Assembly (NCBI GenBank): GCA_012514745.1
Contig: JAAYZR010000025.1
Span: 18,930 to 82,929 of the forward strand
DNA length: 64,000 nucleotides
From: Candidatus Undivivens industriae
GTDB lineage: Bacteria > Omnitrophota > Gorgyraeia > Gygaellales > Profunditerraquicolaceae
Direction: 5' to 3'
Positions 34,886 to 54,695 of this stretch are shown piece after piece. Both the position numbers and the translations under genes were made by a program. A model generated the notes under the pieces. That model saw only the letters and a program-made list of their open reading frames with translations. It was not told where the DNA came from and did not search any database. Positions within the stretch are counted from its first letter, which is position 1, and the number at the start of each line of letters is the position of its first letter.

Positions 34886-34889
<4 letters not shown>

Positions 34890-37161: not shown

Positions 37162-37220
37162 CTGCTTCGCTCCGGGTTAAAGTCCCGGCCAGGCCCATTA
37201 CGGGGCCCGGCGCCGGGATG

Positions 37221-37430: not shown

Positions 37431-37435
37431 AATAT

Positions 37436-37699: not shown

Positions 37700-38497
37700 T
37701 TATTTGAACAGATACGCCTTCCAACGCTCACCCATATCCGTCATATCCCTGAATCCGTATATCTCCATAAAGAACGTTCTCCAGTCATTGTTGAGCTTAT
37801 TATCCCTTAGGGCCCTGCAAAAATCAATGAATTTCTCCTTCCCGTATTCCTGAATCAGGAATTCTACCACCGCCGCGGACTCCGCGTAGAAAACCTCCGG
37901 CATGAACAACCCGGGTTTGGTTATTTCCGTCAGTTTATCCAGATGAATGAACATGCTGGTCTTCACCAGCACCCGGGCTATCGCCGTGTATTGTCCGCCG
38001 TCTTTCTCCTGCGAACAGGCGATACCTTCGTCCAGCCATAAAGGAAGACGGCGGTCGTAGCCCACGAACTCCCTGAAAATAAGATGGGTCATTTCATGCG
38101 GCAGGGTGGTGTCCAGGAAACTCTTGGCGTAGAAAAAGGTGTCGATCCTGCGTTTGCGGACATTGGCGATGCCCCCCGACCAATGCGGCTGTTTGGTGCC
38201 GGCGAGATAGTCTTCCCGGGAAGGATAAAGATTAATGGTGCAGGCGTTGTCCCAGGTCCAGAAATTGAAACGCCGGAAACCCAGATTCTCGGTGATACTA
38301 TCGTAGTATTTCTCGGCCTTTTCAAGGACCTCGTCAACATAATGCTCCGGGTCGGACTTGTAATAGACCTTGAAATGCGTGCTTTTCTTTACCTGCCAGA
38401 GCTCGTTCGCCTCCCCGCGCCGGACAGGTAAAAGGAAGAAGGAGATCGGGATCAAAAGCGCCAAGAAGGGGCTTAGCGATCTATGGAGACACTGCAT
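37700..38497 (-). CDS. Secreted HExxH zinc metallopeptidase-like protein (gluzincin/peptidase-MA-like)
   Basis: Signal-like N-terminus, HEMTH motif and a downstream EGIACSQE as a candidate third ligand. The start is set at M25 (38497), 10 nt after the upstream stop. Confidence 0.5.
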   Translation of the reverse strand: MQCLHRSLSPFLALLIPISFFLLPVRRGEANELWQVKKSTHFKVYYKSDPEHYVDEVLEKAEKYYDSITENLGFRRFNFWTWDNACTINLYPSREDYLAGTKQPHWSGGIANVRKRRIDTFFYAKSFLDTTLPHEMTHLIFREFVGYDRRLPLWLDEGIACSQEKDGGQYTAIARVLVKTSMFIHLDKLTEITKPGLFMPEVFYAESAAVVEFLIQEYGKEKFIDFCRALRDNKLNNDWRTFFMEIYGFRDMTDMGERWKAYLFK

Positions 38498-38507: not shown

Positions 38508-39251
38508 TCATACCGCCGGTTTGCCGTCGTCCTGCTGAGAGGCGTTTTCTTTATCTTCGGAGGTCTCACGGCTCTCTTCGCCGAAAGTGGGCGTGGAGAT
38601 TACTTTGATCTGCGTCTGCCAGATAAAGTAGGAAGCGATTCCGATGAATCCGAGGAACAGTATTATTATCAGGATCAGTCTCCAGACCGCGGCAGCGGGA
38701 ACCGGTTTGGCCTGGGCGAGCAGTCCTCTGGCCGTGGACAGGTCCTCTTTCGCCGATTCCATCAGACGCTGGTTATCGCGGAACAGGGAGATGTGTCTTT
38801 CCGGGTTTACCGACTCGACTTTCTGGTTCTCCTCAATCATCTTGAGTTTGCGTTCGATGTTTTCTTTCAGAAAATTCACCCTCTCCCGAAAGTCCGTTTC
38901 CGCCAGCAGTTTTACCGTCTTATCGAGTTCAGAACGCATCGACTCTATCTCAGCCGCCGGGACCATCCAGACATCCATCATCTCTATTTCCCGTTCCACG
39001 CTCTCGCCCGGCGCCAGTTCATACTGACCGTAAACGAAATAAGACCCCTGCTGGTTGTCGTAACCCACTTCCAGGTCGCCTCTATCTATGATATGCTCCG
39101 GTTTGACTTCCTTGGGCAGATATACCTTGATGGGGACCGACTGCTTCTCGGTCTTGGAAGGGTTGAAAGCCATGGCCTTCAGGACTATGCCCGCGTGAGC
39201 GTCCGCGGCGCAGGCGAATAGGAAAAACAACAGGATGAATATCTTCTTCAT
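38508..39251 (-). CDS. Secreted protein with C-terminal TM anchor, unknown function
   Basis: Signal peptide MKKIFILLFFLFACAADAHA, a coiled-coil middle and a C-terminal TM (WRLILIIILFLGFIGIASYFIW) with an acidic tail. Confidence 0.5.
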   Translation of the reverse strand: MKKIFILLFFLFACAADAHAGIVLKAMAFNPSKTEKQSVPIKVYLPKEVKPEHIIDRGDLEVGYDNQQGSYFVYGQYELAPGESVEREIEMMDVWMVPAAEIESMRSELDKTVKLLAETDFRERVNFLKENIERKLKMIEENQKVESVNPERHISLFRDNQRLMESAKEDLSTARGLLAQAKPVPAAAVWRLILIIILFLGFIGIASYFIWQTQIKVISTPTFGEESRETSEDKENASQQDDGKPAV

Positions 39252-39380: not shown

Positions 39381-42300
39381 CTATTTAAACTCGAACCACG
39401 TCTGAGTGACGGGTTTATTGGCGATGTTGTCTATCATCTTCTGGTTGATGTCCATTACCGCCTTCAATTCCTGGGTTTTGTTCTTCAAATAGGTCATATC
39501 GCTCTTTTTCTCTTCGTTGACCTCCAGAAGCTTTTCCAGGCTGACGTTCTGTTCCGTGCTGACTTTCTTCAATTCCCTGCCGATATTTACCAGCTGCATG
39601 TAAACCGAATTGATATCGGTAGCGCTTCCCGCCACCTCCTTGACCTGATCTACAAGGTCTTTGCTGATCTTGCCCAGGGCCGACTCTATCACGGCGAACT
39701 GGCTGCTGAGAGTATCGGCGACTTTTGAAAAGTTATTCAGGCCGGATGTGGTGCCGAGCACGGCGGAGACCTGCCCGGCTATCTGCTCGATGTCCGAACG
39801 GATCACCGAAATGATCATCGCGTCCAGAGAGCCGTATGTGGATTCCGAACAAACGACTGTAAAATCACCCCTGCCCCAGCCGGAAGAGACGGTAATGGTG
39901 TATTCGTAGATACCTCCGGAGACCTCGGTCATCACGCCTTTAGACACGCGCTGGACGTTATTCGGGTCGTAGAAGTCCACCGTCGGCTGGACCCCCGGGT
40001 ACGTCCGGTAACGCACCACCAGGTCCGTGCCGCTCCTGACCGAATTCTCCCGGTTCAATATCTCCGATCTTATGTCCGTTTCCTGCTGCCGGCGCTCCTC
40101 CTCTATCTTCTCGGGGATGTCGGTCTCGGTGGCGGTGAGTATCCTGGCGGTATCCTCCCTTATCTCCTCCTTGGCCTGAGTGATCTTCTGCGGTATGTCC
40201 TGCGTGACCTGTGACTGAATGGTCGCGGTCTGCGTCTGCAGGTTTTGCAGTATGGCCGTCTGGCCCTTGGCGGTCAATTCCGTCGTTACGTCTATCGAAG
40301 CCCCGGAATTGTAAGTGCTGCCGCGGAAGACGACCGTGGATTTGACGAAATAAGTCTTGCCGGAAGTAAGGCCGGTATCGGCCCAGGTGAACCAGAAGGC
40401 GCCGTTGCCGTCCGGCGTGCCGGAGGTCAATGTCTTTATCAACGTTTCCCCGTCGTAAACGCTTAAGGTCGCGGAAGTGAGATCCGCCCTGTCGATGTCG
40501 TTCAAGCCCACGATCTTTCCCCTTCTTTCCAGCCAGGAAGAGGCGCTGATGGTATCGGTGGCGGAGTTGTAGGCCGTGGAAAGCAGGACGTGCCACTCGA
40601 TCTGCGCGCTTATGGAATTTTCCAGCAGGAGCGTGATGCTTTTATTGCCGTCGGCTATCCAGTCCGTGCTTCTTTCTATATAACCCTCTTTCGACCAGAA
40701 GGTGGTGTAATGCCCGTAGGGATACTCCTGCGTGACCGGACAGATAATGGTAGCGCTGGGGTCGGACCACCAGGTATCCCTGACGCTGAGGTTCTGCAAA
40801 TTATCCATATTATCGTAATCCTTGACCATCCAGGTGATCCGGTAATAGATGATGTTGAAAGAAGGCGATACGGAATAGACGGTGTCGTCCGTCGGGTCGG
40901 AAACCTTGAGCAACGCCTTTTGCCCGTGGTAATCCGGAGGCGCCCAGGTATAGACGCCGGTATTTGGAGTGCTGGTAACTATGGTCGTCCAGGTGTTCCC
41001 GGCATCCACGCTGTAATCAAGCTTGACGTTGGGGATCTGCCCTCTGGTCTGCCAGGTGACGGAGCGCGGTTCGTTAACCGCCCAATCGATGTTCGCCGCA
41101 GGATAGGTTATATTGAATCCGCCGCGTATCCTGAAATTGTTGTTTGAGGCGTCCGAGATAACGGTGCGCGTGGGATCATATATCTTTATCTTCAGGGTAT
41201 TGACGCAGATGGTGTCGTCCGGGATCACCCAGTTGTAACTGCCGGTATTAGGCGCCCCGGTCTTTATGGTGTGCGTGGTGGCGAAATTATCGGAAGAATA
41301 AACTATGGTCAGCGGATTGATCGACAACCCTTTGCTGGTCCAGGTGATGTTCACGCTGTCTCCTACGACATACTCCTCTCCGCCGTTGGGAGAAGTAACG
41401 GCGATCTGCGGATATTGCAGGACGTTGAATGCCTCCGAGGTGGCAATCGTCGCCGGCCGGTTGCCGTCCACGATGCGGATCTTCATATTGTTGGTCGGTT
41501 CGTCCGGCACGCTCCAGTTATAGCTGCCGTCGTTCGCCTCGCCCACACCTATCGTTTCTAAAGTGATGAAGTTATCGGTGGAATACTGCAGCAGCAGATT
41601 ATCGCTGACCGCACCCTCGGAGACCCAGGTGATGACCGCCGGGTCTCCTACAGCCCAGGAAGTGGCGGAGACCGGAGCGGTAATGGTTATCTTGGGATAA
41701 TCGATGATGAATGCGGCGTCCGAATGATCGACTGTGGTGGCGCGCTGGTTGTCGGTTATCCTCACCACGGCGTTGACGGAATAATCCTCGGGAATGGTCC
41801 ATTCGTAAGAGCCGCTGTTGGGGACCCCGCCGGATATCGGTTTCCAGTTCGAGCCGCCGTCCACGGAGTATTGAAGCACAAGGTTGTTGCTCAAGGGGCC
41901 GCCGTTATCGTGCCAGGTGATATTGTGTTTGGTTCCTATCCTCCACCTTTCGCCTCCGTTGGGGGAATCGATGGTAACCACCGGGAACGGCAGGATCGAA
42001 AAACCGGCGTTGGACTTATCCGTTATCTGGGGGACGGAATTGTCGGTGATCCTGACCCTCAAAACGGTAGAAAGGACTTCCGGGACGCGCCAGATATAGA
42101 CCCCGGTGTTGGCTACGTTATCCGCGATCTCGTTTATGTCCAGCACGAAGTTGTCGCGGGAATACTCGATCTTCAGGCTGTTGCTGACCGTCCCCTCCGT
42201 GGACCAGGTGATGTTCTCGTTGTCGGTGACCACGAGGATTTCCCCGCCGTTCGGCCGCGTAACCGTGATGATGGGATACGCTATGGAAAAGACGGTGTCG

Positions 42301-45300
42301 GTCGTATCCTCGATATACGGAGGTTCATTATCCTTGATCTTGATCTTGCAGGTCGAAGAGATATTTTCCGGAACGTTCCAGGCGTAGGAATGGTTGTTGG
42401 TAGGCCCGCTATAGACCGGCAGCCAGGTTGTTCCGCCGTTGACGCTGTAGGTAATGGTCACGTCGTCGGAGACCTGCCCGATGATATTCCAGAGTATCTC
42501 ATGGTTTGTCCCGTAAGGCCAGGCCTCCCCGCCGTTGGGCGTGGTGATGGTGATACTGGGAGCGGATATCTTGAAGACCGCGTCGGATGTATCCTGCGTC
42601 GCGGTGCGGGAATAATCGTATATGCGCACCTTACAATTATCCGAAATATCGTTCGGTATATGCCAGATATAGGTACCATCGTTGGGAATACCGCCGGCAA
42701 TGCTTTTCCAGGTGCTGCCGTTGTTGACCGAATATTGCAGAACGAGATTGTTGCTGATTGAATTATGGTCCCCGACGGAAGTCCAGGTCACGGGGTAATC
42801 GATGCCGACCACCCATAATTCACCTCCGTTGGGGGAGGTCAAAGTCAGCGAGGGCGCGATGATGGAGTTGTTATTTTTGGATTCTCCTTTGACTCCGGGC
42901 TGAGAGTCATCGGAGACTCTGATCTTCAACTCGCTGGTAGGCGAATCGGCGGTCTTCCAGGAATAACTGCCGCTGTTGGCCAGGCCGCCGCTGATCATCT
43001 GCCAGGTGCTCCCGCCGTTGACGCTGTATTCAAGTTTGATGGCGTTCAACCCGATGCTCCCCACCGACTCCCAGGTAATACTGTAGGTCCCGGCGGCGTA
43101 AAGAGACTCCCCGCCGTTGGGCCAGGTAAGCGTAAGCTGCGGTTTCTGAATGGTGAAGTCGGCGTCGGAAGAGTCTTCCACCCAGGGGAAATTCTCGCTA
43201 TCGTCGCATTTGATCTTGATCCTGGCGGTGCTGATCTCCACCTCCGGAGGTATCCAGAAATAAGAACCGTTATTGGGCCTCTGGTCGGAAATGACCTCAT
43301 AATGCTCGCCGGAATCGGGAGAGAAATAAACGGTGAGGAACTGGTCGTCCAGGGCATCCCCGATGGTGAACCATTTAACCTCATAGGGGGCGCCGATGGT
43401 GGTCTTTTCCCCGCCGTTCGGCTGCACCAGCACGATTATAGGCTTATCCAGCACCTCGAAATAGGCGTCGCTTTCATCAAAGACTTCCGGCCTGCTGGTA
43501 TCGGTTATCCTGATCTTGACGTTGCCGCCTACAGCGCCCTGAGGTATCACCCAGGAGTAACTGCCGTCGTCCGCCTCGTCCTCGGAAACCGCCGCCCAGT
43601 TCTCTTCCTCATCCACGGAATATTCTATACGCAGGGCGTTCTCTCCTATGGCCCCGTCCGAAGACCAGGCGATCTCGCGAGTATCTCCTCTCACCCACTT
43701 CTCGGAACCGTTGGGAGAGGAGAGCTTGATCGTCGGCAGTGTAATGGTGAAATCGCCTTCGGACGCGGTCTCCATTTGGGCCTGGGTGTCCCTTCCCGGC
43801 GGGACGGCGGTCTCCGCGATGCGGATCCTCACCCGCGAAGAGAGGACGTTCGGGACCGTGCAGGCGTAGGTCCCGGTGTTGCTCACCGATGACTGCAACA
43901 GCGTCCAGTTCGAGCCGCTGTCAACGGAATAATACACGTTAACCAGCGGATTGACGTTACCCCTGTTGTCCCAGGTGATATCCTTCGCGCTGCCGGCTTT
44001 CCACACCTCTCCTCCCACCGGAGAAGTGATGGTCATGGACGGTTTCGGCACGATGGAAAAGACGGTGTTGGAACGATCGGTAATATTGGTATTGTTCATA
44101 TCCGTGATGCGCATTAAACAAACGGAAGAAATATAGCTTTCCCTGTTCGGTATATTCCAGGTGTATAACCCGTTATTGATACGCTGGTCGGCGACCGGCG
44201 GATAGAGCCAGGTAGTCCCTCCGTCGAGCGAACATTCTATCTTCAGGTTGTTGGATACGGTGCCGTAGGAAGACCAGGTGATATTGTGCGTGGAACCGAT
44301 CTCCCACTGATTGCCGCCGTTGGGAGAATTCAATATCAACCCCATTATACCGAACGCGGCGTCCGAAGTATCCCGGATGGCGGAATACTTCTTGCTGGTT
44401 ACCCTGATCAGGGCGTTGGGAGAAGGATTGTTCGCCACCTGCCACTCATAAGCGCCGTTATTGGCCAGATTATCCACTATCAGCATCCAGGTGGAGCCCC
44501 CGTCGGTGGAATACTCGATCTTTACCTGATTATCCGCCCCGTCGATACCCTGCGACGTCCAGGTTATCAAAACGGTGGTGCCGATAGGCAGGGACTCTCC
44601 TCCGTTGGGGGAGGTTATCGTCAACACGGCGTCGAGATAAGAAAATCCCACGTTCTGCAGGACCGGGGTCTCCTGCCCGTAGGAATTCAGTACGGCCTTA
44701 TACTGCACCCAGCGGTCGTTAACGATATCGGAATTCAGAAAATTGACTAAGCTTCCGGAGGGCGTGATGTAATAAGTCGGCTCGGAAGTGGTAAAAACGC
44801 TGACCGTGTCCAGCAGAGGCGTGCCGACGCCGTCGGCGGAATTCAGGAAAGCGCGGAAAAAGAATTCCCCGCTGGGGAATTTTGTCTGGAAAGCGGCGAG
44901 ATTATTATTGATCTCCGGGGCCTCGTTGGTCTGGCTGAACCCGCCGCTCACCTCCTTCCAGGCGGTCCCGTCCCACCAGTGCCAGTTGTAACCGTCGCAG
45001 GAAACCTGGTACTTGATATCGGTGTCCAGCGGTATGGTGTTCACTTCCTGGAAAGCCGTGAGGTTATTGTCATAGAACACCCCCAGCACCGGCTGGATGA
45101 CCGGATTGGTGGTGTAATAAACCTCCATACCGGTGGGATTGGCGGTCTCGGTAAAGACGAAACCCACGTAAGGCTTGACCACGGCCTTCTTATAGACCAT
45201 TATCTTGTCCACGTAGATGGCATCGCTGGAAGAGCGTATGGTCGGCTTTATCGCCAGGCCCGGGCCCGCTACGTATCCGGCGTTATAGGTGAGCTTGTCG

Positions 45301-48300
45301 CCGGTGCTCAACTCGAAGATTACCTGGCCGGTCTGTCCGTTCAGCGTGTCGTGCGGTTTCCAGGACATCTTGTCTTTGTTCCACATGGCGAAGGTATACG
45401 GCGTGCGTATAGAATTCCAGGTCGTGTAGCCGTTGCCGGACTCGGCGTAATAGTAACCGTTGGAACTGATCAACACGTCGTAACCGGCCTTGTAATTGGA
45501 ATTGTTTATGCCGGTGGAGACCTTGGCGTTGGGGTCGCAGATGCCGATGAAATGCCTGCCGGTCTTGTTGGCCGTCTGCCAGGTCACCTCGGTGGTGATA
45601 TCGTAATTCGGGCTGACGTTGGATTTCGCCTGCAGATAACCGTTATGCGCGACCTTGGCCACGCTGCGGCCGCCCTGCGTGGTATCGGTAAGGGTGAATC
45701 TCCAGAAAAGGCTGTTCAGAGAAACCTCGGCGGCATTATCGAAGGTGCCGCTGATGGAGGCGCTCGTGCCGCCGGTAACGGAAGAAGGCAGAACCGGCCC
45801 CGAGCTCAATTGGAATTTACAGGCGATATTGAACAGTGCCGCCGGCGCCGCGGAACTGGAAAAGAGCTGGTTATTGTTCTGGTCGAGGACTGCCCATGAC
45901 CAGGAATAAAGATGCCCTGCGGTCAGGCCGGAAGGCATAGTTATGGAAATATTGCTGATTGTGCTGGTCCCGACCGGTACATTGAAGGTGGTACTGTCTA
46001 TCTCCTGGAAAGATGCCCCTGTGTCCACATCGGTCAGCGTGAAACGGAATCTTAATCCGTTCATGGCTATGGAATAGTTGTTTGTAAAGGTGCCGCCGAT
46101 GGTAGTTATGACCTGCCCCGGCGCCACGTTCTTCTCCATAAAAGGACCGGCCGTCATTCTCAAAAGGTCGTGGTAAAGGGTGAACGGCTGCGCTATACTC
46201 TGCGCCTCCACCAGGGCGCCGTTGGGCCAGCGCAGTTCCCAGTACCAGTCATACGTCCTGCCCGCGACTATGCCGGAAGGGATAGCGACCGTGGTCGAGA
46301 CCGTGCTCGCGCCGGCGGAAAGGTTAAAAGGGCTGCTGTCCATACCGAAGATAGAGGAAATAGTGGTCAGGTTGCAATACTGCGAATCCCATTTGTCCAA
46401 TCCGGCGTCGAAATCATCGAAAAACTCGAAAACGCCGTCCCCGTCGCTAAGGCTGGCCGCGTCTGCCTTGCCGTAATACATATAGATGATCTTCTGCTCC
46501 GTGTACGGCAATACCGGTATCTTCACCCAGAAACGCGCCTCTTTCCCGGTATAAGAGAAAGATTCCGCGTAATAATTCAGCAGGGCGCTTCCGTCTCCGT
46601 CCACGAAACGCACATCCCCGCCGTCGGCCAGGCAGTGCAGCCAGAAATCCCTGTGGTTCTTGTCCACGTCCACCGCCACCTGGAAATCGGTGAGCTCTTG
46701 CGTGTTCAAGGTATTGTCTATCTTGATGGTCTCTTTGTAAAGCCAGCCGGCAAGAGCGGGGCCGTCCGCGGGTTCCTCTTTCGCCACCAGGTAGGTGGAG
46801 ATAAGGTGATTGAACTCCGTGGGTTTCAACACCGGGGTGATCGCCTCTCCGTAAGAACTGTAGGCGTAAACGGCGAACTTTTTCGTGCCGGTCAAATGAA
46901 GGTTGCGCCAGGTGCTCCCGGGATCGAGAGTAGCCATACCTCCCCTGGCCGAAAGGGTCAAAGTGGTGGGGGACGGGCTGATGTCCCCGGTGACGGTGAT
47001 ATTGTTGGCGCCTTCTTCATAATCTATGAGCTTCAGATAACGCGCGCCTCCGGTATTTATATAATAATCCTTGCCCACGCTCACCAGTGTATCGGCGCTC
47101 TGATAGATCTGCCCCTTGCCTCCGTTCATATCGTCTGCCACCGCGCACAGCGGCTTGTCGGCGCTCAAACGCGCGCGCAGGGTCATGGCGCTCCCGGAGT
47201 TCGGGATATGCCTGTAACTCTGCCCTTTGTTCAACGTGCCGCTGTAATCCCCGGTGACCCCGTCCAGATTGTCGAAAACGATGTTGGTGTTATCCTCATA
47301 GGCGGTAAAGGTAACGTTGGCGTCCGGGCAATAGAAATAATACTCCCGCATATCGGGAGAACGCATCTGCTCCGAGGAATCGCCGTGGCCGATCAGCCCG
47401 GCCTGGACCGTGACCGGCTTGGTCGCCTCTATATGCCAAACCTCGCCCCTGGAATCCACCCTGTTCCAGCCGAACCAGAAATTTCCGGCGTCAAGCGTCA
47501 GGGTGCCGGTATCGTCGCCCTTGCCGTAGTCGGTGATCTTGATCTGGGTATCGTCGTTGTAGGCGGTGATGATCACGTCCCCGTCGTAGTTGTAAGCCGG
47601 ACACCAAAGCCAGAGGTCGTTGCCGCTGGCGGTGTAGTAATCGTCGTCCGAGGTGCTGCTCGGTTCTATGGATGAGGCGAATAAGGTAATCGGTTTCTGG
47701 GAATAGACGTGGTAGCAGGTCAGCGCCGTGTCCGTGTATCTCTGCGTTTCTCCCACGGAGGTGAAGTCCAGGAAGGTGGATGCCACCACCTGGCCTTCGG
47801 CGTTCAGTTTCTCTATATAGACGCGGTTGGGGGCATCGGTGGAGATGATGTCGAGGAAAGTGAAGGTCAGGGCGTAGAAATCAGTGCCTATCATAGATTC
47901 CGCCAGACTGGCGTCCGATTCCGAAGTCGCGCTCCATTTACCGTATAACAGGTATATCTCTTTTGCCGTCCCCTGCGGGATACTCGGCACGGTGACCCAG
48001 CAGGAGGCGCTTTTTTTGTCCTTGCTGAAACCCATTACGCGGTATTTCAAAGGCGTTTTGCCGTCGGAATCGGTGAAACGGATGTCGGAGCCGTCGTCTG
48101 CCACATGGTCCCAGAAGTCTATGTCCGCCGAGGGGATCTCCACCTTGACGGTGGTATTTGCGTAGGAGGAGCTCCCCGATGTGTTATCTACCACGATCTT
48201 CTGCCGGTAGAGATAATCTGCCAGCACCTTGGAGAGTTTAGCCGTGCCTGCGGAAAGCACCACCTCGGAGGTGTTGGCGTATTCATAGGCATTCTCGAAG

Positions 48301-51300
48301 TCATAAGTAATTTCCTGCACTCCCTCCGGGCCCAGCCAGGAAGACCAGGCCCCGGGAGAACCGTTGGAATCAGGCGCGGTGCGCATCTGAAAACGGATGT
48401 CGGTACCGGAAGGCAGCGTGGAGGTCCAGAAAAGGCTTTTCAGCCTGTCGGTGGTAAAAGTGGTGTCGTAAGCAGTGGAGACAAGCGTTTCCTGCGCTGG
48501 ATACTTGTTATAATTTATGGTAATACTATCCATCTGCGGCGGGCTGGCAAGGTCGTAGCAGAAGAACCTAAGCCTGTATTGCAGGTATTTGTCCTTGTCG
48601 TTCACCGAGCTGTATGAGGACAGGTCCCTACCCTTGGTTATCTTGCCGGCGTATCCCCAGGCAATGGCGTCGGATAAGGAACTGTTGTTTCCGGTGCGCA
48701 CGCGCACCTCGATCTGCCCCTGGGAGTTATCCTGCCAGGTAACGGCACCGTATCCGGCGTTGTTGCCGATCTCCTTTATCTCCGAGGTGTATTCCCCGGA
48801 AGAAAACAGCAGATACTTCATCAGCGAATAGTTGCCGTATCCGCTGGAGACATAGATGTAATCACCGCTGCCGGGATACATGGCGTTGGCCTGTCCGTCC
48901 ATGGAAAAAGGCATATCCTCGTTCTTCTCCCAGGTATTACTGCTGATGGAATACCTGTAAAAATACGGGGTGCCATAGGCAATATCGTAATTATAGGAAA
49001 CAAAAAGATAGATATAGTCGCCGAACCCGGGGCTGAACAGGCTCGCTCCGACGTTGAGCATCGGCAGAACGGTCAATGTTGACCAGGTGTTGGCCACCGT
49101 ATCGTATTTCCAGAAAGCGGTGGAGCCGTTGCCCGGAGTAACGTAGATGTAATCCCCGCTTCCCGGATATACCAGGTTTGCTCCCAGAGCACAGGCGGAA
49201 GGAGCTGAAGCCACTTCCTTCCAGTCGTTGTTGGCGATCGAATACCTCCATAAGGTAGTGGTGGAACCGCCGCGCAGGACGTAAATATAACCGTCTTTAT
49301 ACTCGATCGCCTGGCCGGTGGAGAAAGTGGCGGGCGGGGCGGCGAGGTTGGTCCAGAGGTCGGTGCTCACCGTGTATTTCCAGAAATCGGAATAACCGCG
49401 CCCCCTGGTAACGTAGATGTCGTCTCCTGTGCCCGGGTAAACGCTCTTGGAATCGTAATAAACGCCCGAAGGCGTGGATTGCAGGGTGTACCACACCGAG
49501 GAAGAAAGATTGTATTTATAACAGGAGGTGGAGTTGCCGCCGCGCAGATAGAATACGTCGTCCCCGGAAGGCATCGGGCATATCGAGGCCCCGTAACTGG
49601 CGCTGGCAGGATAGACTATGGTTTCGTCCCACCTGTTCTGGCTGATGGAATAACGGTTGAAATTAGTGCCCAAATCTCCGTGCCCGGTGCCGAGATAGAA
49701 ATAAATGATATCACCGCTGCCCGGGTAATAACCGCCCGGCATACCGGAGACGGAAAGCGGGGCCTCGGTAAGAATAGTCCAGGAGTTCTGGCTTAAGGAA
49801 TACCTGGCGAAATCCCTGCCCCCGCCCTTCAGGCAGTAGAGATAATCCCCCGCGCCCGGATACATCAGATAACAATAATCGGCGATAGACCAGGGGGCGT
49901 CGGAGAGATATCCCCAGGTATCGCTGTCAATACTGTATTTAGTGAATTTGACCGCCCCGGCCTGTTTAAGCATATAAATACCTTTATACGGGCCGTCGGG
50001 GATGAGACAGGTGCCGTTGCCCTCACTGGAGATCCCCTCCAGCATCGAGGTAAGCGCGACCCAGGAACCGCCGGACTCGTCGTCAGTGAACTTGAGAAAA
50101 GTGGTGGAGTTATAGTACCCGGGGCAGACGTAGATACTGCTTTCGTCGCTGACCATACGCGCGCCATAGGTGAACATATAGGGGCTGGAATTTATCTGCA
50201 TCCAGATCCCGGTCTCGGTGTTGTATTTCCAGAAATTCTTGTTCATATTCCCTTCCGAGACATAGATGTAATCCCCGCTGCCCGGATAAACCGCCCTGTG
50301 CCCTGCCCCGTGCACGATAAAGGGGAGTTTTATAAGATTCACCCATTTTTTTCGGCTGATAGAGTATTTCCAGACGTAGTTCGACCATCTGTTCGAGAAG
50401 AGATACATATAATCGCCTTTTACCACCAGACTACCGGAGACGTTCCTGCCCGGCCCGAAGTTATAATTCACCAGCGGATTGTTCCACTCTCCTGTGGCAA
50501 AAGTATAAGTCTGCACTCCTCCATATCCGTAGTAACCTACGTTATACAACTTTGTGTCGCTGGCGCACAGCTTGCCTTTTTGAAACACCGGAGGGAAAAA
50601 AAGCGTCTGCCAGGAATTGGTGGATATATTGTATTTAAAGAAAGCTCTGCGAAATTCCAGGTTGCATGCCCCTCCCTCGCTGTAATAAATGGCGTTCTCG
50701 GAAGATGAATAAACGAGTCTCCCCTGGCATTGCGACCTCCAGCAGTCGGGAAGGTTGGCCCTGCGCTCCCAGGTACCGGTAGAGAGCCTGTAACTCATGA
50801 ACTCCGTGCGGGCACTGGCGCGGAACATATATATGTAATCCGAACCGTCGTAAGCGGCGCAGACCCCGGTCTGAAAGGTCCCGTAGGGATTGGTGCTCAC
50901 CGTGGCCCAGGCGCGGCCGGTTTTATCGTACCTGTATAGATTCGCGGTATAGGTGACCGTGCCGCCGGTATTATTCCTGCCTCCCAGACAATACACGTAA
51001 TCATCCGTAACCACCAGCCTATTCCCCCCATAAGCCAAGTTCTGCGGCAAGGCCGGCAGCTGTTCCCAGCTCTGGGATGTGAGACTATAGCGGGAAAATC
51101 CATCCTGCTCATACCCCTGGAGGCAATATATATAATCATCTCCCTGTTTATACCCCAGACATCCTCCTCTGTGGATTCCTAAAGTATTGCCGGCGAAAGT
51201 AACATCCGAAAGCTTCTCCCATTGAAAGGAGACTGCGGTATTGCTGGAATTGACGGGATTGAAAGTAAGGAAATACCGATAGAAGTTTCTGGTGCCTTCG

Positions 51301-52700
51301 CCCCTGGTCAGATAAATGGCGTCCTGCGAAGCCACATACACGGCATCGCCGCCGTAGCGCAGTTCAAAAGCCGCCGCCGACTCTTCCCTCCACTTCTTTT
51401 GCGCGGGATAATACCGGTAAGTGGAGCTGTAGCTGTGGTTGCTCAACAGGCGCAGTTCGCTGCCGCTGCCGTCCGGGTCGTAAATATACATCCTGCCATA
51501 GATGTAGAACGGCAGAGCCGGCATCTCCACGTTTTTGGCGAGCGTGGATGAATAAGCCGAACTCTCCCAGGTGTCGGAGCCTATGGAATATCTGCCGAAC
51601 CACCTGCCGGCGCCGTACCAAGAGTAAAGGTAGTCCCCGGAACCGGGATAGACCACATCGGAATCCCAAGTCTGGCCGGTGGGACAGTTGGAAAGCGTGG
51701 TCCAGGCGTTGGAGCCGGCGGTATAATCGAATTTGGCGAAAGTGACGGAACCGCCGCCCGCGGTAGCGTAGATATAGGGAGAATCGGCTTTGGGATAACA
51801 AAGAGAAGCGCCGACACCCACGGTAAAAGGCGCGGATTCCACCGCCGACCAGGAACCGGTGGCGTTGATGTCCAAAGGCATCACGAACCTGTAGAAGACC
51901 GAAGTGTTGTTGCCGCAAAAGGCGTATGCCCGGCCGATGGAAGACACGATAGCGATCGTCCCGCCGTAACCTACGGTGGAAGGGACGTTGGCCTTGACAT
52001 GCCAGGTATTGGTGGATATTTTATAAGCGTAAAACTCCTTGCGATTACCTCCTATCAAGGCATATATTACGTCGCTGCCGTCGTAAGCCAAAGCGGCTCC
52101 CTGGCCTGTGCTCACGGGTATGCTTTCCATCAATTCCCATTTCTCTTCGTCAATGGACCAACGGGCAAACGCCTTATTGTCGTTGCCGCACTGCCATAAG
52201 GAATAGATGTAATTCCCGGCCTTGACCAGCGGTGATGTCCTGCCCATATAAGGAGAGAAAGGAAGACTGGACCATTGGCCGAGAGAACTGCAGAAAGGGT
52301 CCTGGTAAACCGTGTTGATCTCTACCCTGGCGGAGGCGCCGCTGCCTCCGACCACCACGTTGTTTTTCGTCCCCAGGGAAAAGTCCGTATCCGTGTCGTC
52401 TGTCAGTGCGAGGGTCAGCGGAGACATCACCAACTTGCCCGTAACGCTGGTGGTAAGATTGGAGCTTTTGGAGGAATATTTGGTCCAGTTGCTCTTGTTG
52501 GTAGGGTGTTTGGCTGTATCGGTGGAGGCTCCGCCTCTCCAGTCGCCCTGGCTGAAGTTATAGTATTCTTCACAGAAGGCGCCGGAACAGAGACAAAGAG
52601 AACAGACCAGGAGCGCCGCCAGCGGCATTATCATTATCAATATTCCGGGGTATCCCCTTTTCTTCATCTCTATCTTTCCTTCAGCGCCATACTTACGCAT
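39381..52700 (-). CDS. Giant (4,439 aa) secreted multi-domain protein: beta-propeller blades, DUF2341-like regions, tandem Ig-like modules, coiled-coil C-terminus
   Basis: Uninterrupted 13.3-kb ORF with a signal-like N-terminus. It has more than 15 Kelch-like blades marked by (V/M)YPGSGDY(I/L)Y. Two regions carry D-x-RF-x-D-x-DG...L-x-Y motifs. At least 12 tandem modules of about 85 aa have the form TSPNGGE-W--G----ITW---G-------YS-D-G-TW--I------G-Y-W-VP. The last 300 aa or so are coiled coil. Its ATG overlaps the upstream radical SAM stop (ATGCGTAA). Confidence 0.8.
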   Translation of the reverse strand: MRKYGAEGKIEMKKRGYPGILIMIMPLAALLVCSLCLCSGAFCEEYYNFSQGDWRGGASTDTAKHPTNKSNWTKYSSKSSNLTTSVTGKLVMSPLTLALTDDTDTDFSLGTKNNVVVGGSGASARVEINTVYQDPFCSSLGQWSSLPFSPYMGRTSPLVKAGNYIYSLWQCGNDNKAFARWSIDEEKWELMESIPVSTGQGAALAYDGSDVIYALIGGNRKEFYAYKISTNTWHVKANVPSTVGYGGTIAIVSSIGRAYAFCGNNTSVFYRFVMPLDINATGSWSAVESAPFTVGVGASLCYPKADSPYIYATAGGGSVTFAKFDYTAGSNAWTTLSNCPTGQTWDSDVVYPGSGDYLYSWYGAGRWFGRYSIGSDTWESSAYSSTLAKNVEMPALPFYIYGRMYIYDPDGSGSELRLLSNHSYSSTYRYYPAQKKWREESAAAFELRYGGDAVYVASQDAIYLTRGEGTRNFYRYFLTFNPVNSSNTAVSFQWEKLSDVTFAGNTLGIHRGGCLGYKQGDDYIYCLQGYEQDGFSRYSLTSQSWEQLPALPQNLAYGGNRLVVTDDYVYCLGGRNNTGGTVTYTANLYRYDKTGRAWATVSTNPYGTFQTGVCAAYDGSDYIYMFRASARTEFMSYRLSTGTWERRANLPDCWRSQCQGRLVYSSSENAIYYSEGGACNLEFRRAFFKYNISTNSWQTLFFPPVFQKGKLCASDTKLYNVGYYGYGGVQTYTFATGEWNNPLVNYNFGPGRNVSGSLVVKGDYMYLFSNRWSNYVWKYSISRKKWVNLIKLPFIVHGAGHRAVYPGSGDYIYVSEGNMNKNFWKYNTETGIWMQINSSPYMFTYGARMVSDESSIYVCPGYYNSTTFLKFTDDESGGSWVALTSMLEGISSEGNGTCLIPDGPYKGIYMLKQAGAVKFTKYSIDSDTWGYLSDAPWSIADYCYLMYPGAGDYLYCLKGGGRDFARYSLSQNSWTILTEAPLSVSGMPGGYYPGSGDIIYFYLGTGHGDLGTNFNRYSISQNRWDETIVYPASASYGASICPMPSGDDVFYLRGGNSTSCYKYNLSSSVWYTLQSTPSGVYYDSKSVYPGTGDDIYVTRGRGYSDFWKYTVSTDLWTNLAAPPATFSTGQAIEYKDGYIYVLRGGSTTTLWRYSIANNDWKEVASAPSACALGANLVYPGSGDYIYVTPGNGSTAFWKYDTVANTWSTLTVLPMLNVGASLFSPGFGDYIYLFVSYNYDIAYGTPYFYRYSISSNTWEKNEDMPFSMDGQANAMYPGSGDYIYVSSGYGNYSLMKYLLFSSGEYTSEIKEIGNNAGYGAVTWQDNSQGQIEVRVRTGNNSSLSDAIAWGYAGKITKGRDLSSYSSVNDKDKYLQYRLRFFCYDLASPPQMDSITINYNKYPAQETLVSTAYDTTFTTDRLKSLFWTSTLPSGTDIRFQMRTAPDSNGSPGAWSSWLGPEGVQEITYDFENAYEYANTSEVVLSAGTAKLSKVLADYLYRQKIVVDNTSGSSSYANTTVKVEIPSADIDFWDHVADDGSDIRFTDSDGKTPLKYRVMGFSKDKKSASCWVTVPSIPQGTAKEIYLLYGKWSATSESDASLAESMIGTDFYALTFTFLDIISTDAPNRVYIEKLNAEGQVVASTFLDFTSVGETQRYTDTALTCYHVYSQKPITLFASSIEPSSTSDDDYYTASGNDLWLWCPAYNYDGDVIITAYNDDTQIKITDYGKGDDTGTLTLDAGNFWFGWNRVDSRGEVWHIEATKPVTVQAGLIGHGDSSEQMRSPDMREYYFYCPDANVTFTAYEDNTNIVFDNLDGVTGDYSGTLNKGQSYRHIPNSGSAMTLRARLSADKPLCAVADDMNGGKGQIYQSADTLVSVGKDYYINTGGARYLKLIDYEEGANNITVTGDISPSPTTLTLSARGGMATLDPGSTWRNLHLTGTKKFAVYAYSSYGEAITPVLKPTEFNHLISTYLVAKEEPADGPALAGWLYKETIKIDNTLNTQELTDFQVAVDVDKNHRDFWLHCLADGGDVRFVDGDGSALLNYYAESFSYTGKEARFWVKIPVLPYTEQKIIYMYYGKADAASLSDGDGVFEFFDDFDAGLDKWDSQYCNLTTISSIFGMDSSPFNLSAGASTVSTTVAIPSGIVAGRTYDWYWELRWPNGALVEAQSIAQPFTLYHDLLRMTAGPFMEKNVAPGQVITTIGGTFTNNYSIAMNGLRFRFTLTDVDTGASFQEIDSTTFNVPVGTSTISNISITMPSGLTAGHLYSWSWAVLDQNNNQLFSSSAAPAALFNIACKFQLSSGPVLPSSVTGGTSASISGTFDNAAEVSLNSLFWRFTLTDTTQGGRSVAKVAHNGYLQAKSNVSPNYDITTEVTWQTANKTGRHFIGICDPNAKVSTGINNSNYKAGYDVLISSNGYYYAESGNGYTTWNSIRTPYTFAMWNKDKMSWKPHDTLNGQTGQVIFELSTGDKLTYNAGYVAGPGLAIKPTIRSSSDAIYVDKIMVYKKAVVKPYVGFVFTETANPTGMEVYYTTNPVIQPVLGVFYDNNLTAFQEVNTIPLDTDIKYQVSCDGYNWHWWDGTAWKEVSGGFSQTNEAPEINNNLAAFQTKFPSGEFFFRAFLNSADGVGTPLLDTVSVFTTSEPTYYITPSGSLVNFLNSDIVNDRWVQYKAVLNSYGQETPVLQNVGFSYLDAVLTITSPNGGESLPIGTTVLITWTSQGIDGADNQVKIEYSTDGGSTWMLIVDNLANNGAYEWQVANNPSPNALIRVTSKKYSAIRDTSDAAFGIMGLILNSPNGGNQWEIGSTHNITWSSYGTVSNNLKIECSLDGGTTWLYPPVADQRINNGLYTWNIPNRESYISSVCLMRITDMNNTNITDRSNTVFSIVPKPSMTITSPVGGEVWKAGSAKDITWDNRGNVNPLVNVYYSVDSGSNWTLLQSSVSNTGTYACTVPNVLSSRVRIRIAETAVPPGRDTQAQMETASEGDFTITLPTIKLSSPNGSEKWVRGDTREIAWSSDGAIGENALRIEYSVDEEENWAAVSEDEADDGSYSWVIPQGAVGGNVKIRITDTSRPEVFDESDAYFEVLDKPIIVLVQPNGGEKTTIGAPYEVKWFTIGDALDDQFLTVYFSPDSGEHYEVISDQRPNNGSYFWIPPEVEISTARIKIKCDDSENFPWVEDSSDADFTIQKPQLTLTWPNGGESLYAAGTYSITWESVGSIGLNAIKLEYSVNGGSTWQMISGGLANSGSYSWKTADSPTSELKIRVSDDSQPGVKGESKNNNSIIAPSLTLTSPNGGELWVVGIDYPVTWTSVGDHNSISNNLVLQYSVNNGSTWKSIAGGIPNDGTYIWHIPNDISDNCKVRIYDYSRTATQDTSDAVFKISAPSITITTPNGGEAWPYGTNHEILWNIIGQVSDDVTITYSVNGGTTWLPVYSGPTNNHSYAWNVPENISSTCKIKIKDNEPPYIEDTTDTVFSIAYPIITVTRPNGGEILVVTDNENITWSTEGTVSNSLKIEYSRDNFVLDINEIADNVANTGVYIWRVPEVLSTVLRVRITDNSVPQITDKSNAGFSILPFPVVTIDSPNGGERWRIGTKHNITWHDNGGPLSNNLVLQYSVDGGSNWKPISGGVPNSGSYEWTIPEDYSVNAVVRITDNQRATTVDHSDAAFIIDYPKITITAPVSATSWAVGDPAVITWVSEGAVSDNLLLQYSTDNFITLETIGVGEANDGSYNWSVPDEPTNNMKIRIVDGNRPATIATSEAFNVLQYPQIAVTSPNGGEEYVVGDSVNITWTSKGLSINPLTIVYSSDNFATTHTIKTGAPNTGSYNWVIPDDTICVNTLKIKIYDPTRTVISDASNNNFRIRGGFNITYPAANIDWAVNEPRSVTWQTRGQIPNVKLDYSVDAGNTWTTIVTSTPNTGVYTWAPPDYHGQKALLKVSDPTDDTVYSVSPSFNIIYYRITWMVKDYDNMDNLQNLSVRDTWWSDPSATIICPVTQEYPYGHYTTFWSKEGYIERSTDWIADGNKSITLLLENSISAQIEWHVLLSTAYNSATDTISASSWLERRGKIVGLNDIDRADLTSATLSVYDGETLIKTLTSGTPDGNGAFWFTWADTGLTSGKTYFVKSTVVFRGSTYNSGASIDVTTELTAKGQTAILQNLQTQTATIQSQVTQDIPQKITQAKEEIREDTARILTATETDIPEKIEEERRQQETDIRSEILNRENSVRSGTDLVVRYRTYPGVQPTVDFYDPNNVQRVSKGVMTEVSGGIYEYTITVSSGWGRGDFTVVCSESTYGSLDAMIISVIRSDIEQIAGQVSAVLGTTSGLNNFSKVADTLSSQFAVIESALGKISKDLVDQVKEVAGSATDINSVYMQLVNIGRELKKVSTEQNVSLEKLLEVNEEKKSDMTYLKNKTQELKAVMDINQKMIDNIANKPVTQTWFEFK

Positions 52701-53562
52701 GAAAATACTCCGAACTCCCCGCCGGTTTCTTCTCTTCCAGGCCGGGGATACCGCAGGCGTCGGCCCTGCACTGCCTGCACTTCCTGAACTGGTTTATGCA
52801 AAGCTCACACGCGCTCCTGGCCTCCTGCAGCTCCACGCAGGTGGGAGGCCGCTTATCCTTCATCTGCGAGACCGGGATAAGCGGGATAATATTCATTATG
52901 TGCGCGCCCAGCGCCGAATACTCCTTGGCTATCGCAAAAACCTGCTGCTTGTTGATCTCCGGGATAAGCACGGTATTGACCTTCACCGTGAAGCCGGCCT
53001 TGACGGCTTTTCCGACCCCGTCCTTCTGCCGCTCTATGAGAAGCGCGGCGCCTTCTTCTCCTGTATATGTCTTACCTTTAAAGTTGACGAACCCGTATAT
53101 CTGCGCGCCTATTGCGGCATCGAGGGTATTGACGGTGACCGTGACCGTCCCCACCTTAAGTTCCTTCAATACGGCGATCTTATCCGCAAGCAGCAGCCCG
53201 TTGGTGGAGAGGCACTTCATCAGATCCGGATGGTGTTTCTCCATCAGCCTGAAAGTCTCGAAGGTCTCCTCGTTGGCCAGGGACTCTCCCGGCCCGGCTA
53301 TGCCGGCAACGGTTATACAGTATTTCCTGCGCGCCTCGCTCACTTTTTCCAGCGCCTCGGCCGGTGAAATTATCTTCTCCGACACCCCGGGCCTGTCTTC
53401 AGTCAGATTAAGAGAGCGCAGACAGTATTTACAGCCGATATTGCAGTCGCGCGCCACCGGAAGATGCACCCTGCCGTAGCGGGAATGCGCCGCCTCCGAG
53501 AAACAGGGGTGCCTGTCGAGAGAAAAGGTCTTTTTACGCAGGAACCTGCCGAGAATATTCAT
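52693..53562 (-). CDS. NifB-like radical SAM protein (radical SAM core only)
   Basis: RHPCFSEAAHSRYGRVHLPVARDCNIGCKYCLRSLNLTEDRPGVSE resembles the NifB N-terminus with a CxxxCxxC cluster motif. 289 aa with no NifX-like C-domain. The stop overlaps the giant gene start. Confidence 0.7.
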   Translation of the reverse strand: MNILGRFLRKKTFSLDRHPCFSEAAHSRYGRVHLPVARDCNIGCKYCLRSLNLTEDRPGVSEKIISPAEALEKVSEARRKYCITVAGIAGPGESLANEETFETFRLMEKHHPDLMKCLSTNGLLLADKIAVLKELKVGTVTVTVNTLDAAIGAQIYGFVNFKGKTYTGEEGAALLIERQKDGVGKAVKAGFTVKVNTVLIPEINKQQVFAIAKEYSALGAHIMNIIPLIPVSQMKDKRPPTCVELQEARSACELCINQFRKCRQCRADACGIPGLEEKKPAGSSEYFHA

Positions 53563-54137
53563 CTGACGGCCCCTCCGGATTTATATATGTAAAGCGCTCC
53601 CGTCAACACAAGTATGACCCCTCCCGCTCTTTTTATGACGTGCCTGTGCGGCGCCACCCTCCCCAGCAGACCGGCTGAAACAAATCCCAGAGAAAGATAG
53701 ACCGAAGAGCTTAAGGCGTAAGCCAGCGAAACAAGCATGCCCTGGAACAGCTTTGTGCCCAGTATCAAAGGCACAAGATAAATGTATTTTCTGCCGGGAT
53801 TCAGCATACCCCGCATAAGTCCCATCCCGAACCCCACCCTGCCCTGCAGAGAGCCGCCGTTTTTTTCCCGGTGATTCCCGACGGACAAAAGGGAATATAT
53901 CCCCATTGCGGCGACCGCTATGCCGAACAGCAGATTCACGGCCCTTTTATCTATAGTCAAAGAACGCCCCAGCAAAGCGACTATCAGGCCGAAAATGAGC
54001 AGACCGATCAGCCTGCCGAGAAGGAATTTCAGGCCCGCGTACCTGTCCGATAGAGTGAGCCCGAAAGCCAGGAATGGGCAGATGAACAGCCCTTCCGCGG
54101 ACAACCCTATCACCAGCGCCGTTAATATCCTCTCCAT
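53559..54137 (-). CDS. Polytopic membrane protein (about 6 TM), unknown function
   Basis: 192 aa, hydrophobic throughout. Overlaps the downstream radical SAM gene by 4 nt. Confidence 0.5.
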   Translation of the reverse strand: MERILTALVIGLSAEGLFICPFLAFGLTLSDRYAGLKFLLGRLIGLLIFGLIVALLGRSLTIDKRAVNLLFGIAVAAMGIYSLLSVGNHREKNGGSLQGRVGFGMGLMRGMLNPGRKYIYLVPLILGTKLFQGMLVSLAYALSSSVYLSLGFVSAGLLGRVAPHRHVIKRAGGVILVLTGALYIYKSGGAVR

Positions 54138-54155
54138 ACGCTCTGCCCGCCCTTT

Positions 54156-54695
54156 TCAATGGCACTTAAAACTCTCCACGATACCCCGGAATTCGCTTTT
54201 AGTGACCGTTCCCAGCAGATCCAGAAAAAGGAATTGCCTGCCGGTCTCCGGACAACTGAAGCGGCAAAGCAGTATCTCCTCTTCGGAAGACTTCCCGCAG
54301 GGGCGCGTAACGTTCACGCTCCCTTTCGAGAAAGATACCGCGTGCCCGTTTACCCGGGTCTCTTTATCATCCTCACGTTCTCCGGAAGAAAGCCTATACC
54401 TTTCCGCGGGGAAAAAAGACATTACCTCCTGTCTCTGTTTTCCCCAGGAAACGGCGAATAAACGCTCGAACATCCCCCGCTCTGTCGTGCTTACGAAGAT
54501 CACCGTCCCTTTCTCTTCGCCGCCTTCCACCGTTTCCGGAGGAAGGAACGCGGGGACTTCAAAACTTATGTTGCTGTCCTTCTTCCGATCTATCTGTCTC
54601 TTGTCGCCGGCTCCCGGAGCGTCCTGCGCGGCTAAAAGCAGAAAAACCAGGGACAAAAAGAACGTCCATGAGCTTCTGTATCCGGGGATTCTCAC
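54156..54695 (-). CDS. Secreted hypothetical protein
   Basis: Signal peptide WTFFLSLVFLLLAAQDAPGA. The GTG start overlaps the stop of the upstream HUH gene (GTGA). Confidence 0.45.
   Translation of the reverse strand: MRIPGYRSSWTFFLSLVFLLLAAQDAPGAGDKRQIDRKKDSNISFEVPAFLPPETVEGGEEKGTVIFVSTTERGMFERLFAVSWGKQRQEVMSFFPAERYRLSSGEREDDKETRVNGHAVSFSKGSVNVTRPCGKSSEEEILLCRFSCPETGRQFLFLDLLGTVTKSEFRGIVESFKCH

Follow-up and report, generated by a model that had tools for sequence, protein, structure and literature searches.

A giant modular protein of Omnitrophota with a putative C-terminal membrane anchor, encoded behind a c-di-GMP-class riboswitch

We analysed a 64,000-nucleotide (nt) stretch of contig JAAYZR010000025.1 from Candidatus Undivivens industriae, a member of the Omnitrophota, and we call this whole stretch the window. 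It contains a gene coding for a giant protein of 4,439 residues, hereafter the giant. The giant is a member of a hitherto unnamed, Omnitrophota-specific family that combines a variable outer part with a conserved tail. Encoded next to it is a small protein with a transmembrane (TM) helix that we call the anchor, and the operon leader harbours a riboswitch aptamer of a cyclic di-GMP (c-di-GMP) class. On balance, the giant is probably a c-di-GMP-regulated, Sec-exported and C-terminally anchored adhesin directed at a host or prey. This agrees with the initial annotation of the window, made from the letters alone, which had described an exported, modular, adhesin-like protein.

The giant is encoded by a single uninterrupted open reading frame (ORF) of 13.3 kb on the minus strand (39381..52700), as first annotated. 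Its Met12, at position 52667, is preceded at a distance of 9 nt by an AAGGA ribosome-binding site and opens a canonical signal peptide starting with MKKRG. It is the probable true start, which would yield a product of 4,428 residues. The signal-like N-terminus noticed earlier corresponds to one hydrophobic segment at residues 15-45, the sole hydrophobic or TM-like segment of the whole protein. The giant is beta-rich and high in Ser, Thr and Asn.

As the contig is metagenomic and the protein rich in repeats, the ORF might be an assembly or annotation artefact, that is, a chimera of repeats. This is extremely improbable. The longest exact nucleotide repeat within the gene is 17 nt, and Tandem Repeats Finder returned no repeat array for it. 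The immunoglobulin (Ig)-like modules described below share on average 35% identity at the amino acid level and 48% at the nucleotide level, confirming the divergence in DNA that had been noted for them. Furthermore, the identical protein was called on three contigs, and colinear ORFs are present in independent metagenome-assembled genomes (MAGs), with 85-97% identity over the C-terminal 495 residues. The comparison with giant genes of related genomes, as suggested in the initial annotation, revealed ORFs of at least 3,800 residues in many species. In the family loci with 10 kb of upstream sequence, the ORF mostly remains open up to the edge of the locus, which gives at least 3,800 residues. 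Only one relative seems to have a broken ORF, and there the break is a scaffold gap of 10 Ns. Thus, the ORF is real, and mis-assembly is unlikely, because the identical protein is found on three contigs and colinear ORFs of at least 3,800 residues occur in independent MAGs.

The giant comprises the following regions, from its N- to its C-terminus.

52572..52667, minus strand: Sec-type signal peptide, residues 12-43 (MKKRG, hydrophobic core, GAFC)
52221..52571, minus strand: mature N-terminal region, residues 44-160, conserved at the N-termini of family members (0.53 bits per residue)
48765..52220, minus strand: at least 21 Kelch-like beta-propeller blades, residues 161-1312 (self-built blade hidden Markov model (HMM) and Pfam Kelch_6, Kelch_3 and Kelch_1)
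48201..48764, minus strand: two beta-rich modules without Pfam match, residues 1313-1500 (0.73 bits per residue in the family)
47841..48200, minus strand: DUF2341 domain 1 (Pfam stretch at residues 1536-1598)
46860..47669, minus strand: IgGFc_binding-like region, residues 1678-1947 (Pfam, E 1e-7)
46386..46625, minus strand: DUF2341 domain 2, residues 2026-2105, a small beta-sandwich (Pfam and AlphaFold2 model)
44625..46385, minus strand: variable middle region of ~590 residues, residues 2106-2692, without Pfam match and with partial coverage in homologs
40848..44624, minus strand: 13 tandem Ig-like Kre9_KNH modules, residues 2693-3951 (Pfam and self-built HMM)
39384..40847, minus strand: C-terminal module, residues 3952-4439, with its core at residues 4141-4439 (family-wide alignment, tail motif and conservation)

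The three Pfam families for which searches had initially been proposed, Kelch, DUF2341 and a Kre9-like family, all matched above their cut-offs. DUF2341 (PF10102) scored 129.5 bits (cut-off 23.4) and is present in two copies. Kelch_6 scored 89.6 bits (cut-off 25.3; E 8e-26), with additional matches to Kelch_3 and Kelch_1, and Kre9_KNH (PF10342) 90.4 bits (cut-off 24.6; E 1e-25). A run of Kelch-like blades had been recognized at the outset, with a YPGSGDYIY signature said to recur more than 15 times. The run holds, with 21 blades counted by an HMM built from the giant's own sequence, but the signature does not, as a literal YPG[ST]GD motif occurs only six times. The regions with D-x-RF-x-D-x-DG motifs were correctly identified; there are two such motifs, one per DUF2341 domain. 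As for the Ig-like modules, the estimate of at least 12 agrees with the 13 that we found, but their period is ~96 rather than ~85 residues. Each bears an Asp-box-like S-x-D-G-G-x-T-W motif, on which weak matches to Reelin_subrepeat-B, CHB_HEX_C and BNR are also located. These 13 modules probably form a stalk. Finally, the C-terminal region of ~300 residues had been described as a coiled coil ending in TQTWFEFK. The tail is as described, but the region is not a plain coil. It consists of helices (residues 4154-4225), an Ig/MG2-like sandwich (~4226-4300), helices up to ~4430 and a beta-strand tail. The complete C-terminal module thus has the order two beta modules, helices, Ig/MG2-like sandwich, helices and the tail TQTWFEFK-COOH.

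The AlphaFold2 model of the DUF2341 domain is a compact beta-sandwich, with mean predicted local distance difference test (pLDDT) values of at least 89 per 10-residue block over residues 1-100. It has no significant match in the PDB (best E 0.16), and no solved structure was matched by sequence for residues 1500-2130 of the giant. The IgGFc_binding-like region probably folds as a beta-helix; it is lineage-specific and common only to the window protein and P0049. Many of the DUF2341 copies in the family are directly followed by an LVGWW-x-FDEGSG signature, and we interpret this as the beginning of a LamG/concanavalin-like domain. The second DUF2341 copy of the window (46326-46748, minus strand) is followed by FEFFDDFD...KWD instead.

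The C-terminal module defines the family. We used phmmer to search 1.84 billion representative sequences with the last 495 residues of the giant as the query. This yielded 408 representative matches at E <= 1e-3, including 151 at E <= 1e-30, nearly all of them from Omnitrophota MAGs. In one respect, the function of the protein is thus no longer as blank as initially stated, since it belongs to a conserved family with 408 representative clusters. The ORFs of the family usually have 3,000-6,600 residues, with many between 4,000 and 5,700, and the module is at their extreme C-terminus. This location, together with a [TS]W[FY]E[FY][KR] tail, is found in 121 of the 150 best matches, and the window protein ends with TQTWFEFK. 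Approximately 30 representative clusters have the entire layout, i.e. a signal peptide, the N-terminal family motif F-x-Q-T-D-W-S-G-G (NFSQGDWRGG in the window protein), ~20 blades, ~13 Ig modules and the C-terminal module. Distant members retain the C-terminal module only, and their N-terminal parts are composed of F5/8-type-C and LamG domains, of a beta-helix (NosD) with fn3 domains or of RCC1 repeats. DUF2341 belongs to the conserved equipment of the family, whether as part of the giant or as a protein of its own, because the distant loci encode a DUF2341 protein of 448-912 residues immediately upstream of the giant.

In line with this architecture, conservation relative to 22 full-length relatives peaks in the C-terminal core, at 0.90 bits per residue, and is at its minimum, 0.13-0.27, in the Kelch and middle regions. 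The blades, at 0.24 bits per residue relative to homologs, are the fastest-diverging full-length region. The middle of the protein was tried as the family-defining part and rejected as too variable. With residues 1300-2700 as the query, we obtained one true relative and otherwise DUF2341-only matches. The closest relative found in this way, with 86% identity, is a partial protein encoded in a Candidatus Omnitrophota MAG and listed at NCBI as 'DUF2341 domain-containing protein'. A contig of a JGI metagenome matches the window itself. A scan of GTDB species genomes identified 80 family loci, nearly all labelled Omnitrophota or Omnitrophica. Some carry the labels 'uncultured Planctomycetales/-ia' or 'PVC group', and one, labelled 'Neptuniibacter', is probably mis-binned. 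Seven genomes have two family loci each.

The protein encoded immediately downstream of the giant appears to be its partner.

38508..39251, minus strand: gene for the anchor protein of 247 residues, 129 nt downstream of the giant gene

In the anchor, a signal peptide is followed by a periplasmic beta-sandwich and helical bundle, and the C-terminal end consists of a TM helix, which is strongly conserved, and a charged tail. Neither Pfam nor NCBIfam has a match for this protein. A homolog of ~240 residues is present downstream of the C-terminal module in 75 of the 80 genome loci, and in seven of these it is fused to it. In at least 14 representative clusters, the anchor is fused in frame right after the W-[FY]-E-[YF] tail of the giant (phmmer E 2e-70 to 4e-21), and these fusions lack the anchor's own signal peptide. 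In the AlphaFold2 model of one natural fusion (pLDDT 75), the Ig-like sandwich and helices of the giant are followed by the tail strand, the anchor sandwich, the helical bundle and the TM helix. By the Rosetta-stone argument, the fusions are evidence that the C-terminal module and the anchor work together, and the pair appears to be an obligatory unit. Because the anchor is fused in frame to the tail of the giant in at least 14 clusters, we infer that the C-terminus ties the giant to the cytoplasmic membrane.

The operon leader and the first gene behind it are conserved partners of the giant in part of the family.

55877..55904, minus strand: sigma-70-like promoter (TTGATA, 16-nt spacer, TG-TATACT), identified by consensus match only
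55770..55853, minus strand: c-di-GMP-I-class riboswitch aptamer in the operon leader (RF03167, 60.4 bits, gathering threshold 59)
55716..55742, minus strand: intrinsic terminator hairpin and U8, the probable expression platform
54692..55678, minus strand: membrane-anchored Y1_Tnp/RAYT-like protein of 328 residues, encoded by the first gene after the riboswitch

The giant gene had initially been placed behind a c-di-GMP-like riboswitch. The aptamer is indeed of a c-di-GMP class, and it lies 3.07 kb upstream of the start of the giant (55770 to 52700), with four genes between. The canonical c-di-GMP-I class (RF01051) is at least as likely for this aptamer as the variant RF03167, because its CGCAAAG carries the canonical A at a position occupied by G in the GGC variant model, and because the orthologous leader aptamers score 54-65 bits with RF01051 (gathering threshold 35).

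In the RAYT-like protein, both the HUH motif (LPNHVHLLIE) and the Tyr motif (YMHKNP) are intact, and it also contains a TM helix and, at its C-terminus, a conserved coiled coil. Among 18 metagenome loci with homologs of this protein (L088-L105; 36-99% identity), 16 have the aptamer, located in most cases 90-220 nt upstream of the RAYT-like gene. A Kelch-type giant directly follows that gene in L092, L094, L095, L097 and L098, and the aptamer is directly in front of the giant in L096. The RAYT-like gene lies outside any mobile-element context, and its product may be a domesticated HUH protein. In other loci, a RAYT-like homolog is encoded between the peptidase and the ATPase epsilon subunit described below (see L003, 9036-9995).

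As initially annotated, genes for a type II secretion system (T2SS) or type IV pili (T4P) are present on both flanks of the giant. Family matches identify the following groups.

57557..62343, minus strand: upstream half of a T2SS/T4P-type machine, with an AAA_22 ATPase, a GspC-like protein, a secretin and two TPR proteins
37700..38464, minus strand: Peptidase_MA_2 zinc metallopeptidase (HEMTH) with an N-terminal hydrophobic segment, adjoining the anchor gene in most family loci
32624..37687, minus strand: F-type ATPase genes for epsilon, c, a b/delta fusion, alpha, gamma and beta
29699..32612, minus strand: MshE-type GspE ATPase with an MshEN domain, and GspF platform protein

On the minus strand, the AAA_22 ATPase gene is thus followed by those of the GspC-like protein, the secretin, the two TPR proteins and two proteins without family, and then by the promoter-like site, the aptamer and the terminator. 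The next genes code for the RAYT-like protein, a 179-residue protein, a DsbD_2-like protein, a NifB-like radical SAM protein, the giant, the anchor and Peptidase_MA_2. The series ends with the epsilon, c, b/delta, alpha, gamma and beta genes, MshE-type GspE, GspF, PilM/N, pseudopilins, GspK and GspG. Intergenic gaps are short, and there is no strong terminator 3' of the giant gene. The beta gene extends to 32624 and the MshE gene begins at 32612, placing the F-type ATPase within 10 kb of genes of type IVa pilus (T4aP) type.

The order giant, anchor, Peptidase_MA_2, ATPase, MshE and GspF recurs in distant members of the family with other N-terminal domains. Among the 52 family loci with at least 8 kb of downstream sequence, the ATPase is found downstream of the giant-anchor pair in 33. 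The link to the ATPase/pilus machine is thus frequent and not universal, because the other 19 lack it. A 'symbiotic' F-type ATPase (sF-ATPase)/T4aP locus was published for all Omnitrophota classes as a signature of symbiosis (Seymour et al. 2023, PMC10066038). Judging by synteny and by the match of the beta C-terminal domain to ATP-synt_VA_C, the ATPase of the window most likely corresponds to that sF-ATPase. The earlier idea of a host-contact structure fits both the Omnitrophota origin of the window and this published locus. The c subunit carries the FAEA carboxylate. No gene for an a subunit was seen anywhere in the window locus; the 247-residue anchor protein was considered for this role and rejected, as it has a signal peptide and a single C-terminal TM helix only.

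Because the GspE-family ATPase (30921-32612, minus strand) carries an MshEN c-di-GMP-binding domain, the locus appears to have a second c-di-GMP input besides the riboswitch. The first motif of this domain is largely conserved (KIGEFLVQRGLL...L...L). Predicted control of the giant by c-di-GMP is well supported for the Kelch subfamily, because relatives keep the aptamer in front of the RAYT-like gene and the giant, and because the MshE-type ATPase contains MshEN.

These data suggest the following model. After Sec export, the C-terminal module of the giant would dock on the anchor, so that the C-terminus is held at the cytoplasmic membrane. The 13 Ig modules would serve as a stalk, and the variable DUF2341/lectin-like and propeller modules would be displayed at the distal end, outside the envelope, which they might reach through or alongside the co-encoded secretin, and would bind surfaces of the host or prey there. 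c-di-GMP would set the level of expression. The neighbouring MA-clan peptidase is a candidate for processing the giant or the anchor, or for setting one of them free.

Several points weigh against this model. The docking of the giant and the anchor as separate proteins is proposed from gene fusion and synteny, and the AlphaFold2 model of the fusion has a predicted template modelling score of 0.50 and is without interface metrics. Fold searches returned generic Ig/MG-like and coiled-coil matches only. Being anchored at the cytoplasmic membrane, the giant would still have to get across the outer membrane, and its localisation and binding are predicted from sequence. For the distant loci L002-L005 and L007, the Rfam search gave no riboswitch match, such that the aptamer is conserved only in the Kelch/RAYT subfamily. 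Folding of the leader gave no clear antiterminator that would tell an ON from an OFF switch. Lastly, the 19 loci of 52 without ATPase or T4P genes nearby include both copies of the complete genome discussed at the end.

The flanking genes suggest a different fate for the giant, namely that of a free soluble exoprotein that would be exported by Sec to the periplasm and then leave through the secretin of the adjacent T2SS, a cargo role already raised in the initial annotation. Its gene is flanked by those of GspC-like, secretin, GspE, GspF, GspG-type pseudopilin and GspK proteins, it has a Sec signal peptide and the conserved neighbouring metallopeptidase could free it. T2SS substrates are not known to share a sequence signature. 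However, the C-terminal module is covalently joined to a TM-anchored domain in at least 14 representative clusters from many species, which weakens the cargo proposal, and the anchor gene is the tightest-linked neighbour, in 75 of 80 loci. In addition, some members of the family are far from any secretion genes, and a conserved base with a variable tip suits a displayed protein. We consider a soluble cargo unlikely. It is also improbable that the giant is a pilus tip adhesin similar to PilY1/PilC or MshQ that rides on the pilus or pseudopilus of the locus, even though DUF2341 proteins occur in archaeal T4P loci, where they were proposed to be tip adhesins (Makarova et al. 2016, PMC4858521), and COG annotates DUF2341 as a component of T4P-like systems. 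The giant has beta-propellers like PilY1, and the locus encodes pseudopilins. Nevertheless, Pfam scans of the giant at E <= 0.1-1 gave no match to the PilC/PilY1 propeller (Neisseria_PilC) or vWA, and some paralogs have no pilus genes in their vicinity. Moreover, what is fused to the conserved end is a C-terminal TM anchor whose tail is cytoplasmic, not a pilin-like N-terminal helix.

The size of the giant, its beta-rich, Ser/Thr/Asn-rich composition and the several paralogs per genome could also denote a structural coat, an S-layer-like scaffold over an ultra-small cell without a specific ligand, and a giant protein of V. archaeovorus was proposed to be a coat. However, receptor-binding proteins more typically show such fast swapping of distal lectin and propeller modules on a conserved base, and riboswitch-gated expression speaks against a constitutive coat, a role to which we give little probability. 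Beyond the anchored adhesin, a more ambitious hypothesis would make the giant and the anchor the 'leg', or grappling fibre, of an unrecognised envelope machine of Omnitrophota. In this scenario, the rotary F-type ATPase devoid of an a subunit and the pilus-like MshE/GspF/secretin apparatus, both controlled by c-di-GMP, would mechanically extend, retract or move a host-specific adhesin tethered by its C-terminus, with the RAYT-like protein as a domesticated component. Such a machine would be a diderm counterpart of the gliding legs of Mycoplasma mobile. This hypothesis is highly tentative, and we find it rather doubtful.

The gliding machinery of Mycoplasma mobile combines an F1-like ATPase with the giant surface 'leg' proteins Gli349 and Gli521. 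By analogy, in the Omnitrophota locus a non-respiratory F-type ATPase would go together with giant surface proteins that are anchored in the membrane of a reduced bacterium attached to a host. In contrast, the Omnitrophota cell is diderm, with a secretin and pseudopilins, its ATPase keeps c and b/delta, and 19 of the 52 loci lack the ATPase. LapA of Pseudomonas offers another parallel. It is a giant, repeat-rich and c-di-GMP-controlled adhesin, an RTX substrate of a type I secretion system (T1SS), whose N-terminus is retained in a TolC-like pore of the outer membrane and which is released by the cysteine protease LapG. The two proteins resemble each other as giant repeat-rich adhesins with one terminal retention module, c-di-GMP control and a protease neighbour. 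Unlike LapA, the giant has a Sec signal, a putative C-terminal tether to an anchor in the cytoplasmic membrane, an MA-clan metallopeptidase and a riboswitch. It has no Pfam match to the RTX repeats (HemolysinCabind), and there are no T1SS genes in the 64-kb window.

In the literature, DUF2341 has been tied both to loci of T4P type and to giant proteins of bacteria that depend on a host. PilY1/PilC tip adhesins and the DUF2341 proteins of archaeal T4P loci (PMC4858521) are large, contain a propeller and/or DUF2341, are encoded in pilus loci and have been proposed to act in attachment. The giant differs from them in lacking a match to the PilC/PilY1 propeller and in having its conserved end linked to a TM anchor and not to minor pilins. 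The locus of Seymour et al. (2023, PMC10066038) has the very arrangement of the window, with epsilon, c, b/delta, alpha, gamma and beta beside an MshE-type ATPase, GspF, PilM/N, pseudopilins and a secretin. That article treats the ATPase and pilus genes and, separately, ORFs of more than 20 kb. The text searched has no conserved protein of 3,000-6,600 residues with an anchor in the locus, and no DUF2341, Kelch, C-terminal module or riboswitch; it cites the Mycoplasma mobile machinery as an analogy.

The 'Archaeovorin' and 'Dockerin-type' giants of Omnitrophota (West-Roberts et al. 2023, bioRxiv 10.1101/2023.11.21.568195) are extracellular, adhesion-type modular proteins of the same phylum, encoded near T2SS/T4P-like genes and c-di-GMP-related neighbours. 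They exceed 30,000 residues and have many TM regions, together with SecA_DEAD, C39/S8 peptidase, glycosyltransferase or dockerin domains. In contrast, the giant has 4,439 residues, one signal peptide and a C-terminal module of its own, and Pfam scans found none of those domains in it. The searched text of two preprints on Omnitrophota giant proteins, which deal with proteins of at least 10,000-30,000 residues and other architectures, contains no DUF2341, Kelch, C-terminal module or riboswitch, and further literature searches returned nothing specific on the giant family.

Omnitrophota are abundant, uncultured and ultra-small bacteria thought to be predators or parasites, and their mode of host attachment is not known. 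An unannotated giant ORF has now become a definable family. Its C-terminal dock is conserved, its partner anchor is backed by natural fusions, and its distal modules, which are predicted to bind, are swappable. The family sits in a locus proposed as the symbiosis signature of the phylum, under probable control of a c-di-GMP riboswitch. The dock-anchor pair, the variable heads (for host range), the aptamer and the two paralogs of strain LiM, an organism for which there are both enrichment cultures and proteomes, offer handles for experiments.

Three genes between the RAYT-like gene and the giant constitute a lineage-specific insert.

52693..54695, minus strand: genes for a 179-residue exported protein, a 192-residue DsbD_2-like protein with four TM segments and a NifB-like radical SAM protein

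The insert is present only in the window and in its near relatives L089 and L090. The radical SAM protein matches the radical SAM domain of NifB only, at 266 bits versus a cut-off of 344, and its gene was not found next to the giant in L003, L004, L005, L007 and L092-L098. The role of a maturase of the giant was considered for this protein and rejected, as it is NifB-like, has no SPASM domain and is not syntenic beyond close relatives. The initial annotation had proposed translational coupling between the giant and the radical SAM gene. This depends on the doubtful first ATG, as the 8-nt overlap exists for the longest ORF only. With the giant starting at Met12, which has the better ribosome-binding site, the overlap is replaced by a gap of 25 nt. 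Furthermore, the link itself is weak, the radical SAM gene being confined to close relatives of the window.

Two further genes (56088-57387, minus strand), located between the TPR genes and the riboswitch promoter, code for proteins of 309 and 116 residues without family matches, each with an N-terminal TM segment. In the distant family locus L004, two adjacent secretin genes are present at 1791-6408. Their products have 561 and 980 residues, the latter with TPR, and a two-component system and a GGDEF response regulator surround the giant. Finally, the complete genome of Ca. Velamenicoccus archaeovorus LiM harbours two giant-anchor paralogs, with giants of 3,244 and at least 3,849 residues, in loci L064 and L078 (NZ_CP019384.1, 653827-675347 and 1749361-1770905). 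There are no ATPase or pilus genes within 10 kb of these two pairs, and their neighbours are housekeeping genes.

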